This document shows positions 6,783-64,000 of a stretch of 64,000 nt of DNA, one piece after another. A program made the position numbers and the translations under genes. The notes below the pieces were generated by a model, which was not told where the DNA came from, did no database searches, and worked only from the letters and a program-made list of their open reading frames with translations. Within the stretch, counting starts at the first letter, position 1; each line of letters begins with the position of its first letter. Origin of the DNA: an uncultured delta proteobacterium (GTDB taxonomy: Bacteria; Myxococcota_A; Polyangia; Fen-1088); contig CAVTRY010000013.1 of assembly GCA_963737265.1 (NCBI GenBank), forward strand, positions 230,933 through 294,932, read 5' to 3'.

Positions 6783-7697
6783 ATGAGAAGCAGCATCGAG
6801 GTGGAGAATTTCAGCAAGCTCTACGGCGAATTCCGGGCCGTCGACGACATCTCCTTCAGCGTGGAAGAAGGATCCATCTTCGCCTTCCTGGGCCCCAACG
6901 GGGCGGGAAAAAGCACCACCATCACCACCCTCTGCACCATCCAGCACAAGACGCGCGGGACGTTGCGGATCAACGGGAACGACGTGACCACGGAGCAGGC
7001 GAAGGTCCGCAAGGACATCGGGATCGTGTTCCAGGAGTGCACGCTGGATTCCAAGCTCACGGTGCGCGAGAACTTGAAGCTCCATTGCGACTTCTACGCC
7101 GTGCCCAAATCGGAGATCAAGGACAGGATCCAGTTCGTGCTGGGGCTCGTGGACATCGAGGAGTGGCGGAACGCGCCGGTCGGCGCCCTGTCCGGGGGCC
7201 TGAAGCGGCGCGCGGAAATCGCACGGGGATTGGTCCACTTCCCCAAGGTCCTGTTCCTGGACGAGCCCACCACGGGTCTCGACCCCCAGACCCGCGCCAA
7301 TGTCTGGGACTACATCAAGAAACTCCAGAAGCAGAAGAACATCACCATCTTCCTCACGACCCACTATCTGGAAGAGGCGGAGATCTGCGACCAGGTGGCC
7401 ATCATCGACCATGGGAAGATCGTGGCGCACGACACTCCGTACAATCTCAAGAAGCAGCACACCCGGACCACGACCAGGATCAAGACCTCCGACCCGGAGC
7501 CCCTGCTCCGGTATTGCGCCGAGAAGTCGCTCCCCGTCGCCAGGGAGAGCGAGGGGATTTCGATCACGTCGACGGACATCGGCGCGGTGATGGACCTCGT
7601 TGCCATCTTCAAGGATTCCATCCAGGACCTCGAAATCAACAAGGGAAAGCTCGACGACGTCTTCATTTCCCTGACCGGCAAGGAGATCCGAAACTGA
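6783..7697 (+). CDS. ABC transporter ATP-binding protein (ABC-2/DrrA-like exporter)
   Basis: Walker A GPNGAGKST, signature LSGGLKRR and Walker B LFLDEPTTGLD are all present. Confidence 0.9.
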   Translation: MRSSIEVENFSKLYGEFRAVDDISFSVEEGSIFAFLGPNGAGKSTTITTLCTIQHKTRGTLRINGNDVTTEQAKVRKDIGIVFQECTLDSKLTVRENLKLHCDFYAVPKSEIKDRIQFVLGLVDIEEWRNAPVGALSGGLKRRAEIARGLVHFPKVLFLDEPTTGLDPQTRANVWDYIKKLQKQKNITIFLTTHYLEEAEICDQVAIIDHGKIVAHDTPYNLKKQHTRTTTRIKTSDPEPLLRYCAEKSLPVARESEGISITSTDIGAVMDLVAIFKDSIQDLEINKGKLDDVFISLTGKEIRN

Positions 7698-8527
7698 TGC
7701 GCGCTATTCGAGCGATCCTGGCGAGGAACCTGATCAAGTTCTTTCGCGACAAGATGCGGTTTTTCTTTACGCTGTTCATGAGTGGGTTCCTGCTTTTCGC
7801 CTTCTCGTTCGTGATGAAGTCGGCCGTCGCTGGTGTGGCGCACCCCATGAGCTACCTGGTCTCGGGCATCATCATCATGACCGTGTTCCAGACGGCGCTG
7901 AACAATTCCATGAGCATCCTGGAGGACATCTCCACCGGCTTTATGAAGGAGATCCTGGTGGCACCCATCGCCAGGTGGCAGATCGCCGTCGGACAGGTCC
8001 TGTCTTCCGCGGTCCTGGCGGTCCTACAAGGCATCATCGTCCTGGTGGTGGGGGTCTTCATGGGCCTCAACCTGGATCTGGTTCACTTCGTCCTGATGGT
8101 GTGCCTCATGCTGCTGGTGGGGGTTACCTTCAGTTCCCTGGGACTCTTCCTCGCGGCGCTGTCCAAGGAATCCACCACATTCCAGATCATGATCTCGGTC
8201 GTGACCATGCCTCTCACGTTCCTGTCGGGCGCCTACATTCCCACCACGGTGCTCCCCGCCGTGCTGCGACCGATCGTCTACTTGAATCCCCTGACCTACG
8301 CCACCTCCATGTTCCGCTACACCGCGCTTCACCTGGAATCCATGACCACGCCTGAGTTGGTCAAGGCGGGCGTGGCTTTCGACATCCACGGGTTCGTGGT
8401 GCAGCCCTACGGCGGGGTGCTGATCACCCTGGCCATCGGCGCGACGTTCTTCGGCCTTTGCGTAAACCAGTTCCGCAAGGCCGACTTCTCGCGCGTCACC
8501 GTGTTCAAGCGAGGACAGCACCGGTAG
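7697..8527 (+). CDS. ABC-2 type transporter permease
   Basis: The ATG overlaps the ATPase stop (TGATG). The product is a multi-pass hydrophobic protein. The part of the long 7037..8527 ORF upstream of 7697 overlaps the ATPase gene and is discarded. Confidence 0.85.
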   Translation: MRAIRAILARNLIKFFRDKMRFFFTLFMSGFLLFAFSFVMKSAVAGVAHPMSYLVSGIIIMTVFQTALNNSMSILEDISTGFMKEILVAPIARWQIAVGQVLSSAVLAVLQGIIVLVVGVFMGLNLDLVHFVLMVCLMLLVGVTFSSLGLFLAALSKESTTFQIMISVVTMPLTFLSGAYIPTTVLPAVLRPIVYLNPLTYATSMFRYTALHLESMTTPELVKAGVAFDIHGFVVQPYGGVLITLAIGATFFGLCVNQFRKADFSRVTVFKRGQHR

Positions 8528-8567
8528 TGATGGCGCGTGCGGCCGCGCATCGCCTGACCATCCGTGG

Positions 8568-8816
8568 TGATCCCCGACCGAGGGTAGTTTCGTCGTCGCC
8601 CTGATCCCCGACCGAGGGTAGTTTGGGTGCCGTGATCCCCGACCGAGGGTTGGTGATCCCCGACCGCGTCGTGATCCCCGACCGAGGGTAGTTTGGGTGC
8701 CGTGATCCCCGACCGAGGGTAGTTTGAGCCGATCCCCGACCGAGGGCAGTTTCGTCGTCGTAGCGTCCGGAATTCGTCCCGGTGATCCCCGACCGAGGGT
8801 AGTTTCGTCGTCGTAG
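8568..8816. repeat. array of 8 degenerate direct copies of the left terminal repeat TGATCCCCGACCGAGGGTAGTTT
   Basis: Copies start at about 8568, 8602, 8633, 8654, 8672, 8703, 8730 and 8783, with irregular spacing of 18-53 bp. The short inter-copy tails (cgtcgtcg, gggtgccg) are themselves repeated. Confidence 0.85.
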
Positions 8817-8922
8817 ATGATCCCCAGGGTAGGTTCGTCGTCGTAGCGTCCGGAATTCGGACGTACCTTGTGCCGTTCGGGGGACATCATCGCCCTCCCA
8901 AAGTACCCCCGGATGCGGAATC
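8817..8922. mobile_element. MITE-like element, copy A (imperfect 23-bp terminal inverted repeats)
   Basis: The left end is TGATCCCCAGGGTAGGTT and the right end is AAAGTACCCCCGGATGCGGAATC. The core cgtcgtcgtagcgtccggaattcggacgtaccttgtgc.gttcgggggacatcatcgccctccc is shared with copies B and C. Confidence 0.7.
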
Positions 8923-8995
8923 CAACCGAACCGCGCCTCGGCGGAGGGCGGGGAGATGCAGACTAGCTAGGAGGAGACGGACATCCAGGTTCCGG

Positions 8996-9259
8996 CTACG
9001 CCTCGACGAGCAGCACCAGTGTCTCGGCCAGCACCCCATCGTGCGCCATCGCCTCGGCGGCACCTGGCGTGCTCATCGCGGTCTTGAGAGCATTCATGTC
9101 AGGAACCTCCATTAGCACCCCGACGCGAGTCGGATTCTGCGGGTCGACGAATTTACGAATGCCACTGACACCGAGGGGACCGAAAAACTTCTCCCGCATG
9201 GGCGAGGCGAGCCAATGCTTGGTGTCCTTCACGTGATGACAGCCGATGACGGCGGGCAT
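8996..9259 (-). CDS. hypothetical 87-aa protein carried between MITE copies
   Basis: Clean ORF (MPAVIGCHHVKDTKHWL...LVLLVEA) with no overlapping repeat. I do not recognise a family with confidence. Confidence 0.5.
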   Translation of the reverse strand: MPAVIGCHHVKDTKHWLASPMREKFFGPLGVSGIRKFVDPQNPTRVGVLMEVPDMNALKTAMSTPGAAEAMAHDGVLAETLVLLVEA

Positions 9260-9363
9260 GTTCTATCTCCTACGCAACGCATCTCCTACGCAACGCACGC
9301 GTTGGCGCCGCAGATGTGTTGTGAAAATCAAACCGCTGGTTTGATTCGCTACCTCACCAAAGC

Positions 9364-9518
9364 CATCCCCGACCGAGGGTAGTTTCGTCGTCGTTTGATC
9401 CCCGACCGAGGGTAGTTTCGTCGTCGTAGCGTCCGGAATTCGGACGTACCTTGTGCTGTTCGGGGGACATCATCGCCCTCCCAAAGTACCCTCGGATGGG
9501 GATCTGGGATGGGGAATC
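9364..9518. mobile_element. MITE-like element, copy B, preceded by one extra left-repeat copy
   Basis: An extra left repeat lies at 9364-9395. The full unit spans 9396-9504 and has the same core as copies A and C. An additional GGGATGGGGAATC stutter extends to 9518. Confidence 0.7.
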
Positions 9519-57516: not shown

Positions 57517-58744
57517 CTACGCCAGCGTGGCGTATTCGCCGAGCAGATCTTCCATGCGACCGAGCACGTCAGCCATGGCCTTTTCGTCGGGCAGAAGCGT
57601 GATGCGGAAGTGGTTGCGGTAGGGCACGTTGAAGCTCGACCCTGGCGCCACCAGCACGTGTTTGCGTTCGAGCAGATCGATGGCGAACTTTTCGTCGTCG
57701 AAGGCGGGCAGCTTGGTCAGGTCCACGCCGGGGAAGGCGTACAGCGCCCCGCGCGGAGGCACGAGGGTCAGGTACTTGCTGCGTTTCACGCCTTCAATCA
57801 CCGTGGCTCGCGTCTGGAACAGTCGGCCTCCAGGCTTGGTCAAATCGTGGATGGACTGGTAGCCGCCGAGCGCGGTCTGCACGGCCCACTGGCCAACGAC
57901 GTTCGAGCACAGGCGTAGCGATGCGATGGTGTCGAGGCCGAGCAGGTAGTCTTGCGCCTGCTGCTTCTCGCCCGAGAAAACCAGCCAACCGACGCGGAAC
58001 CGCACACGATCGGTAGACCTTGGAAAGGCCGGAAAAGGTTCCGCACAGGGTGTGCTTGACCAGGGGCGCGACCGGCGTGTATTCGGCGCCTTCGTAGGTA
58101 ATCTGGTCGTAGATCTCGTCGGTGAAGACCACCAGATCGTGCTTTTCGGCGATCGACACCATCTCTTGCAGAACCTCGCGCGGATAGACCGCGCCGGTTG
58201 GGTTGTTCGGCGAAATGATGACCAGGGCGCGCGTGCGCGGCGTGATCAGCTTGCGCAGAGCGCCTAAGTCGGGCAACCAATTGAGCTCGCGCGGGCAAGG
58301 GTAGTGCACCGCCCTGCCGTCGTTGAGGTGGGTGGCGGCGGTCCACAGCGGGTAGTCGGGACTTGGCACCAGCACCTCGTCGCCTTCGTCGAGCAGCGCC
58401 CGCAACGAAAACAAGATCAGCTCGCTGACGCCGTTCCCCATGAAGACGTCGTCCACGGTCGTCTCCATCACACCGCGGTTCTGCTGCTGCATGACCACCG
58501 CCTCGCGCGCCGGAAAGATTCCCTTCTGGTGGCAGTAGGCGTCCGATTCGCGCAGGTTCTCGATCATCGCCTGCCGCATCGTCTCGGGCGCGCGAAAACC
58601 GAACGCGCCGGGGTTGCCGATGTTGAGCTTGACGATCTCGTGACCAGCTTTTTCGAGCTCCGCGGCCCGGCGTGCCAGCGGTCCGCGAATCTCGTAGCGG
58701 ACGTTGGCGAGTTGGGAGCTGGCCTTGATGCGATTCATGGTCAT
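57517..58744 (-). pseudogene. AlaA/AlaC-type PLP-dependent aminotransferase with an apparent 1-nt insertion near 58000
   Basis: Frame 1 reads MTMNRIKASSQLANVRYEIRGP...NIGNP...SPNNPTGAVY...FSGLSKVYR. Frame 2 continues GFRVGWLVFSGEKQ...RITLLPDE... The PLP lysine lies in SGLSK, just before the shift. Confidence 0.85.
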
Positions 58745-58962
58745 GGCGAGGCACCAAGATAGACCACCTGCTTGCGATGTAAAAGTCCGCGTGCAGGCGA
58801 ATCGGCGGAGAGGTTACAAGCCCACGATATCATGGCCGATTCTGGAATATCGGCGATGCGGGTCCGGGCGCCGTTTGCGTCGGATGGTGCGATGGCTCAC
58901 TGGCTGTCATGATATTGTTTCTTCACGTTTCCCTTCCATCCAAGCGAGGTTGTTAATCTATC

Positions 58963-60075
58963 GTGCAGACCCATCGAAGATTCTTGGTAGCCACGTTCAT
59001 GATCTTGCTCGGCCAGGCGTGCGCCGGGGCTAAAGTCGATTCCTCAACCACGTTGGGCGGCGATGGTGGGAGCGGTGGAAGCGGGGGACCGTCAGGCGGC
59101 GGCGGAACGGTGTCGATCAACCTGGACGCCGTATCTCTTCCCCCGCCGCACTACGGTCGCGAGGCATCGGTTGGGGACGCTAAGCCGTATCGTTGTGACG
59201 ACGCGGGCAATTGCAACATATGTCTGGCGATTCTGTCGTTAGGGCAACCCGCGCACTATGGCGAGCAAAGCAGCGGCGGGGACAACACGGACGCGTTTCA
59301 GAACTTCATGAACACCAACACCAACGCCAAGATGGTGATGCTGAAGACCTACACGCCACTGACCGATTCGCTGCTGAACCAGTACGACGTCGTCATCTTG
59401 CAGGCGCTGGAAGACAACGAATACACTGGATTGTGGAGTTATTCGCAAAGCGACATCGCGGCTCTAAGCAAGTGGGTAAACAACGGCGGTGCCATCATTT
59501 CGATGTCTGGCTACGGCAATAATGTTTCAGAGGTTCAGCCGCTCAATCAGTTGCTGGGTCCGTTCGGAATCACCTACAACACGGACAATATTTTCGATGC
59601 CAACGCATGTACCGACAACCTTTGCTATTGCTCCTATGGTTCGATTCCATTTACCAACTGGCAAGCGGGCGATGCCGACGCCGCCGCCATCACGACGAAC
59701 CACGACAATTCCACCCTTGGCAAGGTGGGTATTTTCCTTGGGCGATCCATCAATTGCAGCGGGGATTGCAGCATCTTCGCGAAAGATCCCAAGCCCGCCG
59801 CCGGCGAAGGCAGCGTTGGTGTGGCGAAAGTCATCGGGAACGGACGGGTATTTGCCTGGGCCGACGAGTGGATCACCTACACCAGCCAATGGGGCCTGAC
59901 GCCGGACCCGATGTATGACAATGCCACCACCTATCAACAGTGCGTTGGCCACACGCCGTATACGTCCTATGCCGTGCCACAGTTCTGGTACAATGCTTTC
60001 AGATGGGCGGCGCCGAGCGCCGCCTGTTTCACGATCGATCAGCCAGCAAATCCCGTCCAACAGATCGTTTATTAG
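58963..60075 (+). CDS. hypothetical lipoprotein (possible GATase1/ThuA-like fold)
   Basis: GTG start, lipobox ILLGQAC and a Gly/Ser linker. The central YDVVILQALEDNEY...NNGGAIISMSGYG suggests a flavodoxin-like/ThuA-type domain. This is a low-certainty fold guess. Confidence 0.5.
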   Translation: MQTHRRFLVATFMILLGQACAGAKVDSSTTLGGDGGSGGSGGPSGGGGTVSINLDAVSLPPPHYGREASVGDAKPYRCDDAGNCNICLAILSLGQPAHYGEQSSGGDNTDAFQNFMNTNTNAKMVMLKTYTPLTDSLLNQYDVVILQALEDNEYTGLWSYSQSDIAALSKWVNNGGAIISMSGYGNNVSEVQPLNQLLGPFGITYNTDNIFDANACTDNLCYCSYGSIPFTNWQAGDADAAAITTNHDNSTLGKVGIFLGRSINCSGDCSIFAKDPKPAAGEGSVGVAKVIGNGRVFAWADEWITYTSQWGLTPDPMYDNATTYQQCVGHTPYTSYAVPQFWYNAFRWAAPSAACFTIDQPANPVQQIVY

Positions 60076-60178: not shown

Positions 60179-60518
60179 TGGTCTACCTGCGACCGCTTAA
60201 CGCCTATGGGGGTCGGGGGTGAGGAATACTTGCTCCTCCGTGGCACTGGCCATCGTCTCGCGGCCACGGCTCGCCTCCCATTTGCACCCCAGCCCTGAAT
60301 GCCAATTTCTGGACACAGCTTGAGTGGCGAAACGTTCGAGCACCCCGTGGCGCGTCATTCCGAGCACGCGAATCTTGATCGCCTGCGCCTCGGCGAGCCG
60401 GGCCTTGATCACTTCACCAGAAGGTCGGGGAGTTGTTGCCGGTTCGACACACAAGATTGCGATACTAACTGCCCGTGGAACATCCGCGACGTTCGGCAAG
60501 GATCAATCTGGTGCTGCC

Positions 60519-62894
60519 ATGAGCCGCCTGGCCCAAGCATTCTCCGAACCCGTTGTCCGGTCGGTGGACAATTCGGCGCCGCCCTCCGCGGAGCGGTTGC
60601 GCGATGCCCTCGGCATGCGCGACGTAAGCGACCTCGACCGTCTGCCATTCGTGGGCGAGGACACCACCGCGGGCAGCGAAGCGGAACTGCAAGCGTCGGT
60701 CCAGGGCTGTCGGCAAACCGTGGACTTGCCTCGGGTCGTGGCGCAATCGGATTTCTTCGCCAACATCGTGCGCCGTGCGGCCGTCGGTGACACCGCGGCG
60801 CGCGCGGTGCATGCGCTCGAACGCTTTCTCGACGAGAACCGCGACGGCGTTTGGGACAACAGTTGGGTGCGTTTTCCCCGGCAACTGCTCGGACGGGCGG
60901 CGGCCGACACGCTGATGAACGATCTCTACGCAGACAAGGCCAATCCGCCCAGTGGATTGCGTAGCGATCTCACTAGTTTCCTAGCCGAGGAACGCGGCAT
61001 TGAATACGTTCGCGTCCCCATCAGCTACCTGCTCAAACTGGCCCTGGCCGACGCGGTCGCGGCCTTGCGCGAGGCGCCCGAGGCGGTTCGCAAGACCGGC
61101 CGTCGGCTGCTCGACAACTTCCTCAGCGACAACACCTCGCCCGAAACCTGCTCGTTCAACGTGGTTTCGCTGTCGCCTTCGGCGGGCGGCGGTCGGGTGC
61201 TCGCGCGCGAGGCGGGTCGACGCTTTCTTCTTACGCAATTGCTACTTGCCTACGCCAACCGACGCTACGAGCTCGAAGCCACGGGACAGAAGGCGGCTGC
61301 CTGCCACGCGCCGACTCCGCCCGTACGGCAACGCGAGCTCAACGAGCTCATCTCCGACTCCTTTTACCGCGAGGTCTTCATGAATCCCTGCCTGTCGGGC
61401 TGGGATCGCGGCGAGGAGAAACGCGCCTACATGGGCCTGTGCCACGAGGTACTCTCGCGCAGCCAACTCAACGGCGTAAAGAAGCTGCGCGACGCGGGCA
61501 TCATCTACAACAACCTCGTCGTCATGCCGAACACCTCGAACACCAGTCTTGCCAACAACGGTGTTCACGTGAGTCTAGGCAGCAGGCGCCTGACCGCTCT
61601 GGTCGCGGCAAACAACGACCGCTTCGGTCCGCGCGACGAAAAGCATTTCGGGGATCTCGCCATCAAGATCATGGAGCACTTCCTGCCGCTGTTCGTCGGC
61701 ACCTACAGCGCGGCTCCGTATCGACTGGGCTTTCGCGATCTCCACCCGGAGACCGCGCTCGGCTTTCTGCCGCACGAACTGGATTTTACCCATCTGCGCA
61801 TGCTGTGGCGTCGCTGGAAAGGCAAGGCCTCGATGCATGCCTTCGGTATGACCTTGACCCCGTGTGGACCGGCGTGGATCGATCGCGCTCTCAGCACGGT
61901 GTTCGGCCTGCGCGGGGATTGGGTGCCGGATTTTCGCCTCATCGACTATTTGGTCTTCCTGATGAGCACCCACACCAGTCCGTCGCTAAGTGGCGCCCTC
62001 GGCAACTCCGACCGCCTTAAACGAGATCTTGCCAGCATGGGCGTCTTCGACGCGCGCATGTCGCTCTACCTGCTCGTCAAGCTGCGCGAGCAAGCCGTGA
62101 TGGGATTTTCTGGCTTCGAAGGCCGCCAATACAGCCTGTTCGAGCGCTTCGCCGGCGACATGGCGCCTGCGGTCGGCCTGCAAAACCTTCTGTGTGCCCT
62201 GTCCTACCGGCTGATGGCGTCGGGCGCGGCGACACACGCCGATATTCCGGACGGCCCCACCATTGAAAGCGAACGGCGCCAAGTGGTATTCGATTGCGCC
62301 ATTGGACTGCCGACCTTCTTCGTCAACCAAGAGACGCCCAACCGATTCTTGAAAGCGATCCTCGAGCGCACCCAAGGCATTCGATCCAGTCGGCGTTACC
62401 CGGGCTACTGGCGCGTGGCGACCGACGAGTATCGTCGCGGCCTCGTGCGCTACATCCGCGAGGAAGCCGCCGACCTGGTCGAGGCGCTTGGCGTGGAGGA
62501 AACCCTGGGCGATCTCTTGCGCCGGATCGACGAACCGGAAGCACGCGCCGCCTATCGCCTGACGAGCGGTATCTTGGACCTGACCGGCGGGCGCGATCCA
62601 ATGAAGGTCGAGGCGCGCACGTTCAACCTCGCCGCTGAAGCCTACTATCGCGGGCCACTCCGCAAGGCGCAGCTTGCCGAGTCCCTGGACCTTCTGCGCG
62701 AGGAATTCACCGAGCCCATGCTCCGGTTGTGGGCTGCGCAAGGCGCTGGACTGCAATCGGTGGCCGATCCCGATGGCTACCTCGCCGCGGTCAAGAACGA
62801 CGTGGTCGAGGACCGCATCAACACCGAGGTGGTCCTACAACTCATCGGGCTTATTCTGCTCGTGACCTTGAACGCGGAGCCCACGGATGGTTGA
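60519..62894 (+). CDS. large conserved-looking protein of unknown function (about 790 aa)
   Basis: Long uninterrupted ORF with coding-like composition. Start chosen at the ATG at 60519 (the ORF is open from 60324). The stop overlaps the psd start by 8 nt. I recognise no domain or motif. Confidence 0.6.
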   Translation: MSRLAQAFSEPVVRSVDNSAPPSAERLRDALGMRDVSDLDRLPFVGEDTTAGSEAELQASVQGCRQTVDLPRVVAQSDFFANIVRRAAVGDTAARAVHALERFLDENRDGVWDNSWVRFPRQLLGRAAADTLMNDLYADKANPPSGLRSDLTSFLAEERGIEYVRVPISYLLKLALADAVAALREAPEAVRKTGRRLLDNFLSDNTSPETCSFNVVSLSPSAGGGRVLAREAGRRFLLTQLLLAYANRRYELEATGQKAAACHAPTPPVRQRELNELISDSFYREVFMNPCLSGWDRGEEKRAYMGLCHEVLSRSQLNGVKKLRDAGIIYNNLVVMPNTSNTSLANNGVHVSLGSRRLTALVAANNDRFGPRDEKHFGDLAIKIMEHFLPLFVGTYSAAPYRLGFRDLHPETALGFLPHELDFTHLRMLWRRWKGKASMHAFGMTLTPCGPAWIDRALSTVFGLRGDWVPDFRLIDYLVFLMSTHTSPSLSGALGNSDRLKRDLASMGVFDARMSLYLLVKLREQAVMGFSGFEGRQYSLFERFAGDMAPAVGLQNLLCALSYRLMASGAATHADIPDGPTIESERRQVVFDCAIGLPTFFVNQETPNRFLKAILERTQGIRSSRRYPGYWRVATDEYRRGLVRYIREEAADLVEALGVEETLGDLLRRIDEPEARAAYRLTSGILDLTGGRDPMKVEARTFNLAAEAYYRGPLRKAQLAESLDLLREEFTEPMLRLWAAQGAGLQSVADPDGYLAAVKNDVVEDRINTEVVLQLIGLILLVTLNAEPTDG

Positions 62895-63900
62895 GGCCGT
62901 CTGCCGCCATCAATACGTGGAACGGCAATCCGGGGACGTGCGCGACGAACAGCTCTTTTGGGATGGCGCGATTCGCTTTCTCTATTCGTCGGTGCGCGAA
63001 CGGGCGCCGGCGCTCTTTGCGGCCTTGACCAGCCAGCGCATGTCGTCGGTGCTGCGCTTCTTGAACTACGATCTGTTTGTCTGCCGGCGCTTCACGGGCG
63101 CCCGCCGCTTCATCGAGGCCTCCGGAATCGACCTCGGCGAGTGTTTGGACGAGCCGGAGTCGCTCGACACCCTGACCCGTATCTTCGAGCGCAGAATTCG
63201 CTACTGGGATTGCCGCCCCATGCTTGAGCGCGAATCCGTCGTCGTGTCGCCAGCGGACGCGCGCATGGTCTGTGGATCGCTGTCGAGCGAGTCGATGTTG
63301 AATATCAAAGGCAAATTCTTCGACCTCGAGGAATTGCTGGGTAACAGGGCCGATTACGCGCGCCGCTTCACCGAGGGCGATTGGGCGGTGTTCCGTTTGA
63401 CGCCGGACAAGTACCACTACAACCATGCGCCGGTGGCCGGCGTGGTGATGGATTTCTTCGAAGTGTCGGGCGCCAACCACTCGTGCAACCCCAATGCCGT
63501 GGTGGAAGTCGTGACTCCGTTTTCGAAAAATCGCCGCGCCGTCACTCTCATCGACACGGACGTTCCGCACGGCAGCGGCGTGGGCCTCGTCGCCATGATC
63601 GAAGTTGCGGCGTTGATGATTGGTGGCATCGTGCAGTGCTATTGCGACTCTCGCTACGAGAACCCACGAATCGTCGAGCGGGGCCTATTCGTCCGCCGAG
63701 GCGCGCCCAAGAGCCGCTATCGTCCAGGCGGCAGTACCGATGTACTGCTTTTCGAAGCTGGCCGGATCCGCTTTCGCGAGGATCTACTGCGCAACCAACA
63801 ACGGACGGACGTGGCGAGCCGGTTCTCGACGGGATTTGGCCACCCGCTGGCCGAAACCGACGTGCGCGTGCGCTCCGCCATCGCCGAGCAAGCTCCGTGA
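62887..63900 (+). CDS. psd: phosphatidylserine decarboxylase proenzyme (pyruvoyl-dependent, long N-terminal form)
   Basis: FRLTPDKYHYNHAPVAGVV (the DYH(R)xHxP-type motif) is present, along with the self-cleavage GST motif in RYRPGGSTDVLLFE. Confidence 0.85.
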   Translation: MVEAVCRHQYVERQSGDVRDEQLFWDGAIRFLYSSVRERAPALFAALTSQRMSSVLRFLNYDLFVCRRFTGARRFIEASGIDLGECLDEPESLDTLTRIFERRIRYWDCRPMLERESVVVSPADARMVCGSLSSESMLNIKGKFFDLEELLGNRADYARRFTEGDWAVFRLTPDKYHYNHAPVAGVVMDFFEVSGANHSCNPNAVVEVVTPFSKNRRAVTLIDTDVPHGSGVGLVAMIEVAALMIGGIVQCYCDSRYENPRIVERGLFVRRGAPKSRYRPGGSTDVLLFEAGRIRFREDLLRNQQRTDVASRFSTGFGHPLAETDVRVRSAIAEQAP

Positions 63901-64000
63901 ACGCCAACGTCGCATTTTGGACCGTTCTGGCCGTGGCGGCGATGGCGATCCTTGTATGGGGCGTTCGCGTGCTGCCGCGCGAGCATATGCAGATCCTTGC
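63897..64000 (+). CDS. membrane protein, 5' end only (runs off the window)
   Basis: The GTG overlaps the psd stop (GTGA). VNANVAFWTVLAVAAMAILVWGVRVLPREHMQILA begins with a TM helix. Identity unknown. Confidence 0.3.
   Translation, partial: MNANVAFWTVLAVAAMAILVWGVRVLPREHMQIL

Follow-up and report, generated by a model that had tools for sequence, protein, structure and literature searches.

The window analysed here, a stretch of 64,000 nucleotides from an uncultured delta proteobacterium (contig CAVTRY010000013.1, from a soil metagenome), ends in three overlapping forward-strand genes whose products each belong to a known superfamily yet fail the tests for the characterised families within it. 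Gene 1 encodes a member of a compact, highly conserved family that, according to structure prediction, has a carboxylate-amine ligase fold of the glutamine synthetase (GS)/glutamate-cysteine ligase (GCL) type. Gene 2 encodes a divergent relative of phosphatidylserine decarboxylase (PSD), and gene 3 a divergent polytopic membrane protein of the LGT family. In many lineages this trio is genomically associated with Pho-regulon and phospholipid-degrading genes. It is quite possible, although we advance this as a tentative proposal, that the three genes form a phosphate-limitation-linked pathway leading to a remodelled, possibly phosphorus-free diacylglyceryl amino-lipid. No paper that describes the trio or the ligase family turned up in full-text searches of the literature.

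Gene 1 ends with a TGA at 62892–62894; the longest form of its open reading frame (ORF) starts from GTG 60324, and the form from ATG 60519 gives 791 amino acids (aa), the length and start that are also found in the closest homologues. Genes 1 and 2 share ATGGTTGA at 62887–62894, as seen both in the ORF table and in the raw sequence, and gene 2 runs from ATG 62887 to a TGA at 63898–63900. This stop codon lies within a GTGA at 63897–63900 whose GTG opens gene 3, which leaves the window after 34 codons. An earlier note, made from the letters of the window, had described three overlapping ORFs and taken them for one unit. The ORF list and the sequence bear out both overlaps, and the unit is borne out by other genomes, in which the trio is contiguous at most assessable loci (see below). 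The G+C content is even across the region (0.62–0.65). Such tight overlaps are found in the lineage of the window and in some others (loci L001–L003, L088 and L089 of our collection), and the trio genes of most Geobacteraceae loci are spaced about 30–250 nt apart.

Table 1. Features of the three-gene locus, in window coordinates, with the assignment or the basis of each.
Feature	Position	Strand	Assignment or basis
Conserved non-coding block, 41–105 nt upstream of gene 1 start	60414..60478	+	alignment with relatives
Gene 1 (“BIG”), 791 aa	60519..62894	+	new family, predicted glutamate-cysteine-ligase-like (carboxylate-amine ligase) fold
Gene 1, candidate catalytic E54/E56	60678–60686	+	conservation
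Gene 1, candidate catalytic H350	61566–61568	+	conservation
Gene 1, candidate catalytic R473/D476	61935–61946	+	conservation
Gene 1, candidate catalytic Y517		+	conservation
Gene 1, candidate catalytic E534/R536	62118–62126	+	conservation
Gene 2, 337 aa	62887..63900	+	divergent phosphatidylserine-decarboxylase-family pyruvoyl enzyme (by sequence)
Gene 2, putative self-cleavage site between G282 and S283	63733–63735 (S283)	+	motif
Gene 3, first 34 codons (window end cuts rest)	63897..64000	+	divergent LGT-family polytopic membrane protein (by sequence)

The gene 1 family comprises at least 2950 homologues with identities of 54–90%, every one of them labelled ‘hypothetical’, and its Geobacter, Syntrophales and Acidobacteria members are 54–60% identical to each other. 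An alignment of 44 members has a mean column identity of 61% and many invariant residues. When the family profile was run against 1.84 billion representatives, it returned 878 of them (at 50% clustering, many being fragments), all from the family itself, and no bridging relatives were present among the best 150 matches. Gene 1 has no match in Pfam, NCBIfam, PADLOC or the PDB sequences. Even at E ≤ 10, neither the query nor any of 54 family members matched a Pfam or NCBIfam model, and the PDB sequences returned nothing with phmmer (single sequence) or with hmmsearch (two family profiles). The sequence models for GCL (Pfam Glu_cys_ligase, GCS2 and GCS, NCBIfam gshA) also left gene 1 unmatched, and an hhalign comparison of the family profile with E. 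coli GshA found nothing. The protein has no signal peptide. The view of the earlier note that gene 1 is cleanly coding and uncharacterised holds, with no sequence-level family assignment in Pfam, NCBIfam or the PDB sequences. The hydrophobic C-terminal tail that it pointed out is present as well; it closes a predicted helix of the C-terminal region, which is all-helical and poorly conserved. A defence-system reading of the locus was rejected, as PADLOC gave no match.

The first AlphaFold model of gene 1, based on 44 close sequences, had a predicted local distance difference test score (pLDDT) of 76 and gave no significant Foldseek match. With divergent family members added, the AF2 model reached a pLDDT of 91.4 and a predicted template-modelling score of 0.93, and it was only after this addition (pLDDT 76 to 91) that the GCL fold was recovered. 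Ranks 1–17 of a Foldseek search of this model against the PDB are all GshA, GshF or GCL, the best with E = 1.3e-4 and a probability of 1.0, and the target-normalised TM values for these top 17 matches range from 0.46 to 0.53. The structures include GshF of Streptococcus agalactiae and Pasteurella multocida, E. coli GshA, Francisella GshA and yeast GCL; among the matching PDB entries are 1V4G, 2D32, 3NZT, 3LN6 and 3LN7. They are followed by Dop (rank 18) and a glutamine-synthetase-like enzyme, both of the same fold class. On the basis of the model, gene 1 has a GS/GCL-type carboxylate-amine ligase fold. Since hhalign and hmmsearch found nothing for GCL, this kinship is visible by structure only; of the searches that the earlier note had proposed, AlphaFold with Foldseek led to the GCL superfamily. 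The same note had called the protein an enzyme or a regulator; the assignment to a ligase fold argues for the former and against the latter.

Invariant or near-invariant residues on predicted strands of gene 1 include E54-x-E56, H350 and E534-x-R536, and they contribute to a candidate active site (Table 1). In E. coli GshA, the metal and ATP ligands are reported to be E27, E29, E67, H150 and E328, with R330 in addition (Hibi et al. 2004). When the two proteins are compared by eye, from the order of the residues and not from a superposition, G-S-E54-A-E56 on the first long strand of gene 1 pairs with GshA E27/E29, NNG-V-H350-V-S-L-G with SG-V-H150-Y-N-F-S, R473-L-I-D476-Y with R235-L-S-D, Y517 with Y300, and F-E534-G-R536, again on a strand, with E328-V-R330. 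The candidate ligands follow each other in the same order and the last three intervals are comparable in length; no counterpart of GshA E67 was identified in this comparison by eye. The pairing suggests that these gene 1 residues could be equivalent to the metal and substrate ligands of GshA. The likeness to GshA and to the GCL domain of GshF lies in the predicted fold, as seen in the top 17 Foldseek matches (probability 1.0), and in conserved acidic, His and Arg residues that appear to keep the GshA ligand order. There are also differences: gene 1 has no detectable sequence similarity to these enzymes, is about 270 residues longer, has large insertions that separate its ExE strand from its His strand as well as an all-helical C-terminal region of ~150 residues, and has other neighbour genes.

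Gene 2 matches the Pfam family PS_Dcarbxylase (PF02666) with E = 5.4e-39 and 134 bits, the gathering score being 22. Its motifs comprise D124 in SPAD, H177 and H180 in YHYNH, and G281-G282-S283-T284; D124, H177/H180 and G282-S283 align to D90, H144/H147 and G253-S254 of E. coli Psd and are kept in 70 orthologues. With the NCBIfam equivalog models, the protein nevertheless stays below the cut-offs (138.9 vs 371 for NF001941, 85.8 vs 111.75 for TIGR00163 and 85.5 vs 307 for NF002853), and the Geobacter orthologue likewise falls under the PSD equivalog cut-offs. Because the pyruvoyl-forming residues are intact but the scores lie far under these cut-offs, gene 2 appears to encode an active-looking PSD-family paralogue that is not demonstrably the housekeeping enzyme. 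The earlier note had seen a clear pyruvoyl-type PSD with a GGST cleavage site; the domain and the site stand, whereas the scores speak for a divergent paralogue and not for a clear housekeeping PSD. With Psd (PF02666, NF001941/TIGR00163), gene 2 shares the domain, the Asp/His/Gly-Ser-Thr set for autoprocessing and the long N-terminal region that is typical of the E. coli-type enzyme. It differs in its score against the equivalog cut-off (139 vs 371 bits), in the family blocks CNPxAV and PKSxYRPG, which are not seen in E. coli Psd, and in its genetic pairing with the ligase gene and the LGT-like gene.

The full gene 3 protein (P0273, 343 aa) was retrieved in a homologue search with the corresponding protein of relatives; it is flagged as encoded by the genome from which the window derives, and its first 35 residues are those of the ORF in the window. 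It carries a precomputed Pfam LGT tag, and public annotation names it ‘prolipoprotein diacylglyceryl transferase’. Relatives at 90% identity, as well as Geobacter pickeringii, have directly after the PSD-like gene a gene for a protein of 343–350 aa with a Pfam LGT domain (PF01790), scoring 37.2 bits for the L001 orthologue (76% identity to the protein encoded in the window) and 30.7 bits for the Geobacter protein, with a gathering score of 24.9. The family has 2355 matches and is similar in size to that of gene 1; the LGT-like protein scores far under the equivalog cut-offs for Lgt (30.4 vs 334 for NF000778 and 19.7 vs 118.9 for TIGR00544). When 60 orthologues were aligned by MAFFT with the distant E. 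coli Lgt, the LGT-like protein was seen to retain Y26, R143, G154, R239 and E243 among the signature and essential residues of Lgt (Y26, R143, N146, E151, G154, R239 and E243); it also keeps R246 and has Val in place of H103. Hydropathy combined with a positive-inside count missed the known seven helices of E. coli Lgt and was not used to predict the topology of the LGT-like protein. Judged by its sequence, gene 3 encodes a divergent polytopic membrane protein of the LGT family, which refines the ‘membrane protein’ of the earlier note through the Pfam match and P0273. Like Lgt (PF01790), it is polytopic in the membrane and falls into that Pfam family, and in the alignment it keeps six Lgt residues. 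It differs in scoring far under the equivalog cut-offs, in the replacement of N146 and E151 by Cys and of H103 by Val, in extra hydrophobic segments at its N- and C-terminal ends, and in being genetically tied to two soluble or peripheral enzymes and not to lsp or lnt. The structure of E. coli Lgt is known, and all characterised Lgt enzymes act on proteins (PMC4728403). No conserved lipobox-bearing gene was found among the flanking ORF clusters of the trio locus.

To follow the trio through other genomes, we scanned a collection of 185,579 genomes, one per species, and fetched 80 loci. Relatives of gene 1 are encoded in at least 577 species genomes. Among the 69 loci with enough downstream DNA, the ligase, PSD-like and LGT-like genes are contiguous and in that order in 59; five have only the PSD-like gene adjoining the ligase gene, and a further five have neither. 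The linkage to the PSD-like gene, which would have told against the earlier note had it been unique to this genome, is thus widespread across species genomes. The conservation of the locus cannot be put down to chance, given at least 2950 homologues at 54–90% identity and an order that is contiguous in 59/69 loci. Carriers are labelled as Geobacteraceae, Desulfuromonadales, Syntrophales/Smithella, Syntrophobacterales, Desulfomonilaceae and Acidobacteria/Blastocatellia, and include a Brocadia metagenome-assembled genome (MAG) and ‘delta proteobacterium’ MAGs, one of which is placed in the Polyangia by NCBI. In four Syntrophales genomes that lack the PSD-like and LGT-like genes beside the ligase gene, the latter adjoins an S33 alpha/beta hydrolase and a PhoB-like regulator, and locus L014 has PhoU/Pst genes in addition. 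A gene for a DksA/TraR-type C4 zinc-finger protein (130–150 aa) lies between the PSD-like and LGT-like genes in seven Smithella/Syntrophales loci (L015, L026, L027, L060, L064, L069 and L073), and just before or after the trio in other Syntrophales.

The surroundings of the trio were analysed by clustering all flanking ORFs within 6–10 kb and annotating the recurrent clusters. An OmpR-type regulator with PhoB as its best model (270 bits vs a cut-off of 296) is present in 20 loci and sensor kinases in 17; PstS, PstC/A and PstB occur in 8–9 loci, PhoU (207 bits, above cut-off) in seven, the polyphosphate kinase PPK1 in seven, and PhoH2 in four. In the Geobacteraceae, a DUF2062 protein (18 loci) and a Zn-dependent phospholipase C (PLC; 12 loci) are encoded immediately downstream on the same strand, and in four Syntrophales loci a putative HAD-type phosphatase follows the LGT-like gene. 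An 800-aa GT4 glycosyltransferase, whose best NCBIfam matches include GlcNAc-PG synthase and monoglucosyl-diacylglycerol synthase, is encoded divergently upstream in 20 loci. Alkaline phosphatase, a YegS-type lipid kinase, PAP2, patatin, PhnJ and Ppx each occur as neighbours in single loci. Individual loci bring several of these together: Geobacter sp. SVR has PAP2, PPK, GT4, the trio, PLC, DUF2062, an alpha/beta hydrolase, a YegS-type lipid kinase and alkaline phosphatase within 10 kb; one Syntrophaceae genome has a PhoB-like regulator, the trio, PIN-PhoH, patatin and PhnJ; and Geobacter pickeringii has a PstS-like protein upstream of the trio, with Ppx and CHAD downstream.

The 800-aa GT4 protein (7083–9515 on the minus strand of L090, and in 19 other loci) has an unusual architecture, in which an N-terminal CehA/McbA (PHP-type) metallohydrolase domain is fused to a glycolipid-synthase-like GT4. 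A family of ~720 aa without a Pfam match is encoded beside the GT4 gene and the trio in eight loci of Geobacteraceae/Trichlorobacter (L004 3209–5365, L090 17312–19480, L057 9292–11454) and could be a further component of the same island. In 13 Geobacteraceae loci, the gene that directly precedes the ligase gene encodes a protein of ~250 aa without a Pfam or NCBIfam match (L020 5042–5806, L004 9026–9772).

The regions upstream of gene 1 were searched by k-mer enrichment and by scanning with a position weight matrix (PWM). In a subset of loci, PhoB-type direct repeats of the form GTCAT-N6-GTCAC, with an 11-bp spacing, are located 70–200 nt upstream of gene 1; one such PhoB/OmpR-type repeat upstream of the ligase gene reads ACGTCATCACCTCGTCACA. 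A PWM score of at least 10 was found in 20 of 79 upstream regions compared to 3 expected, for a PWM that was built on 10 of these same sites and a control by mononucleotide shuffling. In the window, the block at 60414–60478 follows the pattern TCAC..AAG.TCG..TCGACACA..CCGTGG, with TCAC(C)AGAAG / TCG units ~11 bp apart and, in addition, TTCGACACA and CCGTGG. It is common to the window and to L001 and L005–L007, relatives at 74–90% protein identity, and the remaining spacer is not alignable. From its conservation, the block is probably a promoter or operator. The upstream region of gene 1 contains no Rfam match, no sigma-70 consensus and no terminator, and a riboswitch or RNA leader was rejected on the Rfam result.

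That gene 1 acts as a ligase, what the three enzymes act on and in which order, that the product lacks phosphorus and that Pho controls the trio are all inferred from these observations. The pathway that we propose, which would probably be switched on when phosphate is limiting, would run as follows. Gene 1 would be a cytoplasmic, ATP-dependent carboxylate-amine ligase that, like gamma-glutamylcysteine ligase, converts a carboxylate to an acyl-phosphate and then joins it to an amine, so that an amide-linked head group is made or extended, for example through attachment of gamma-glutamyl to an amine of the Cys, Ser or ethanolamine type. Gene 2 would cleave itself between G282 and S283 to yield the pyruvoyl enzyme and strip the alpha-carboxylate from a side-chain-tethered amino-acid moiety, as PSD does with phosphatidylserine (PS). 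The Lgt paralogue encoded by gene 3 might move diacylglyceryl from a phospholipid to the thiol or hydroxyl of the head-group precursor, a step that would free a phosphorylated alcohol for phosphate recycling. In the Lgt reaction, phosphatidylglycerol itself is the direct donor of diacylglycerol, and glycerol phosphate is set free. Given a small thiol or hydroxyl acceptor, a paralogue of Lgt could produce a (thio)ether lipid without phosphorus and liberate the phosphate in a single step. S-diacylglyceryl-cysteine and O-diacylglyceryl-serine would be close PS analogues for a PSD-type enzyme, and a GCL-type ligase could either supply a gamma-glutamyl dipeptide as acceptor or cap the resulting amine. 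The most specific form of this proposal, which we regard as rather doubtful, is that the trio makes a new class of phosphorus-free membrane lipids. In it, the Lgt paralogue would move diacylglycerol from a phospholipid straight to the thiol or hydroxyl of a small molecule (for example cysteine, serine or a gamma-glutamyl dipeptide), the PSD paralogue would then decarboxylate the tethered amino acid, and the GCL-fold ligase would add an amide-linked unit. A role in head-group or amino-lipid metabolism, which the earlier note had suggested from the coupling to psd, is still the best reading and is strengthened by the LGT-family gene 3 and by the lipid and phosphate neighbours.

Several points weigh against the proposed pathway. 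At the window locus, the 8 kb read upstream (from 56000) contain no Pho gene, and there is no Pho-box-like repeat in its own upstream spacer. The neighbour counts are not phylogenetically independent, although the arrangements vary (upstream, downstream and in both orientations), which argues against mere inherited synteny. The link of gene 1 to GCL is structural only, as sequence profile methods find nothing. N146 and E151 of Lgt are both replaced by Cys in the LGT-like protein, within the motif GRLACISFGCCYG. E. coli Lgt modifies proteins at the periplasmic face, but a ligase that depends on ATP has to reside in the cytoplasm, and the phospholipase C of the operon would yield free diacylglycerol, which is not used by Lgt-type chemistry. 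PSD-family enzymes can use soluble amino acids (PsiD), so the substrate of gene 2 need not be a lipid.

Other readings take up some of these points. The trio might modify the head group of an existing phospholipid without sparing phosphorus, for instance by N-glutamylating or otherwise N-acylating phosphatidylethanolamine or PS supplied by the PSD-like enzyme, as an adaptation to envelope stress, with the LGT-like protein acting at another step or on another acceptor. Glutamylation of ethanolamine-type amines by a GS/GCL-type ligase is known from Streptomyces (GlnA4), and this precedent, the PSD fold with its intact motifs, the predicted ligase fold of gene 1 and a window locus without Pho genes in the part read are all consistent with such a modification. 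It seems unlikely to us all the same, as it leaves unexplained both the tightly kept Lgt paralogue and the repeated neighbourhood of Pst, PhoU, PhoB, PLC and phosphatase genes. The ligase and the decarboxylase might instead make a soluble amide or amine, such as a low-molecular-weight thiol akin to gamma-Glu-Cys, or a glutamylated ethanolamine or cysteamine from head-group salvage, with the LGT-like protein serving to anchor or export it or being a separate matter. The nearest structures to gene 1 are indeed gamma-glutamylcysteine ligases, the PSD family includes decarboxylation of free amino acids (PsiD), and in five genomes gene 1 stands without an adjoining PSD-like or LGT-like gene, beside an alpha/beta hydrolase and Pho genes. 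We nevertheless consider a soluble product distinctly unlikely, because the LGT-like gene is contiguous in 59/69 loci and overlaps the PSD-like gene in several lineages, and because lipid enzymes (PLC, lipid kinase, PAP2, patatin and glycolipid-type GT4) dominate the neighbourhood.

That the trio modifies a protein is very unlikely. In such a scheme the ligase would join a carboxylate to a protein amine like PafA/Dop, which are of the same fold class, and the Lgt paralogue would lipidate a cysteine of a dedicated protein. Dop does appear among the structural matches, but only at rank 18, with far stronger matches to GCL ahead of it; the locus holds no conserved gene for a lipobox or tag substrate, and a PSD-type decarboxylase would have no obvious role, even though the characterised Lgt enzymes all act on proteins (PMC4728403). 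As a last alternative, a canonical psd and lgt might merely lie beside an unrelated conserved gene, as the Pfam PSD and LGT domains and the public annotation of gene 3 as prolipoprotein diacylglyceryl transferase could suggest. This is scarcely credible in view of the scores (139 bits where the PSD cut-off is 371, and 30 and 20 bits where those for LGT are 334 and 119), the substitution of Lgt N146 and E151 in the gene 3 family, and the persistence of the three genes together across phyla. To our knowledge, psd and lgt are near-universal in bacteria, whereas gene 1 is found in at least 577 of 185,579 species genomes. The housekeeping reading was therefore rejected on model scores and distribution.

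The proposed phosphate-linked pathway can also be set beside known lipid-remodelling systems. With PlcP combined with Agt or BtaAB, and with OlsBA/OlsF, the trio shares its ties to Pho-regulon genes, a phospholipase C and a glycolipid-type glycosyltransferase, and the predicted replacement of the head group; in contrast, none of PlcP, BtaA/B, OlsA/B/F and Agt is homologous to the trio enzymes. The trio may thus carry out phosphate-linked remodelling of lipid head groups by enzymes unrelated to those of the known systems. We know of no described counterpart to a combination of Lgt-type diacylglyceryl transfer, pyruvoyl decarboxylation and ATP-dependent amide ligation.

Anoxic sediments, soils and stratified waters are rich in phosphorus-free lipids, for which the genes are known only in part. 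The trio is a candidate pathway for such lipids, and its carriers include cultivable relatives of Geobacter, with Geobacter pickeringii, Geobacter sp. SVR, Citrifermentans bremense, Trichlorobacter thiogenes and Geomesophilobacter sediminis among the cultured ones. If the proposal is correct, the Lgt, PSD and GCL families would be shown to have a wider chemistry than is known today, thousands of ‘hypothetical’ 800-residue proteins would gain an annotation, and the genes could serve as a marker of phosphate stress in anaerobic communities. In its most specific form, the Lgt family would gain its first acceptor that is not a protein, and a GCL-fold ligase would for the first time be given a role in lipids; a phosphate-sparing route in which the phospho-head group leaves in one step would then be available to anaerobic Desulfobacterota, Geobacter, Acidobacteriota and soil Myxococcota. 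As the three enzymes diverge from classes whose mechanisms are well understood, the hypothesis is directly testable.

Some features around the trio lie outside this argument. Beyond its distal end, the closest relatives L001 (14411–19960) and L002 (14411–20728) encode, on the minus strand, a giant protein of 1850–2100 aa with repeated F5/8 type C (discoidin) domains, which converges on the end of the LGT-like gene, and a discoidin-repeat giant gene may also follow just beyond the end of the window. Upstream of gene 1, a 32-codon remnant of a metallophosphoesterase gene, 69% identical, is found on the minus strand at 60314–60409. In the 90%-identical relatives L001–L003, the metallophosphoesterase gene lies divergently upstream of the ligase gene; this gene and a neighbouring gene of 490–530 aa are missing from the window, which indicates a deletion in its lineage. 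A class I/II aminotransferase at 57520–58833 (minus strand) is split into three frame segments that correspond to residues 1–26, 29–278 and 279–438 of the intact 438-aa L001 orthologue, the long segments (residues 29–438) being 93–94% identical to it. The segments imply two frameshifts, near 58753 and 58000, and the broken gene is either a pseudogene or the result of indel errors in the assembly. Between it and the trio, a 370-aa protein with a signal-peptide/lipobox-like N-terminus (LLGQAC) and a Gly/Ser-rich linker is encoded at 58963–60075 on the plus strand; it has no NCBIfam match and is 64% identical to a 341-aa protein encoded at the same position in L001.

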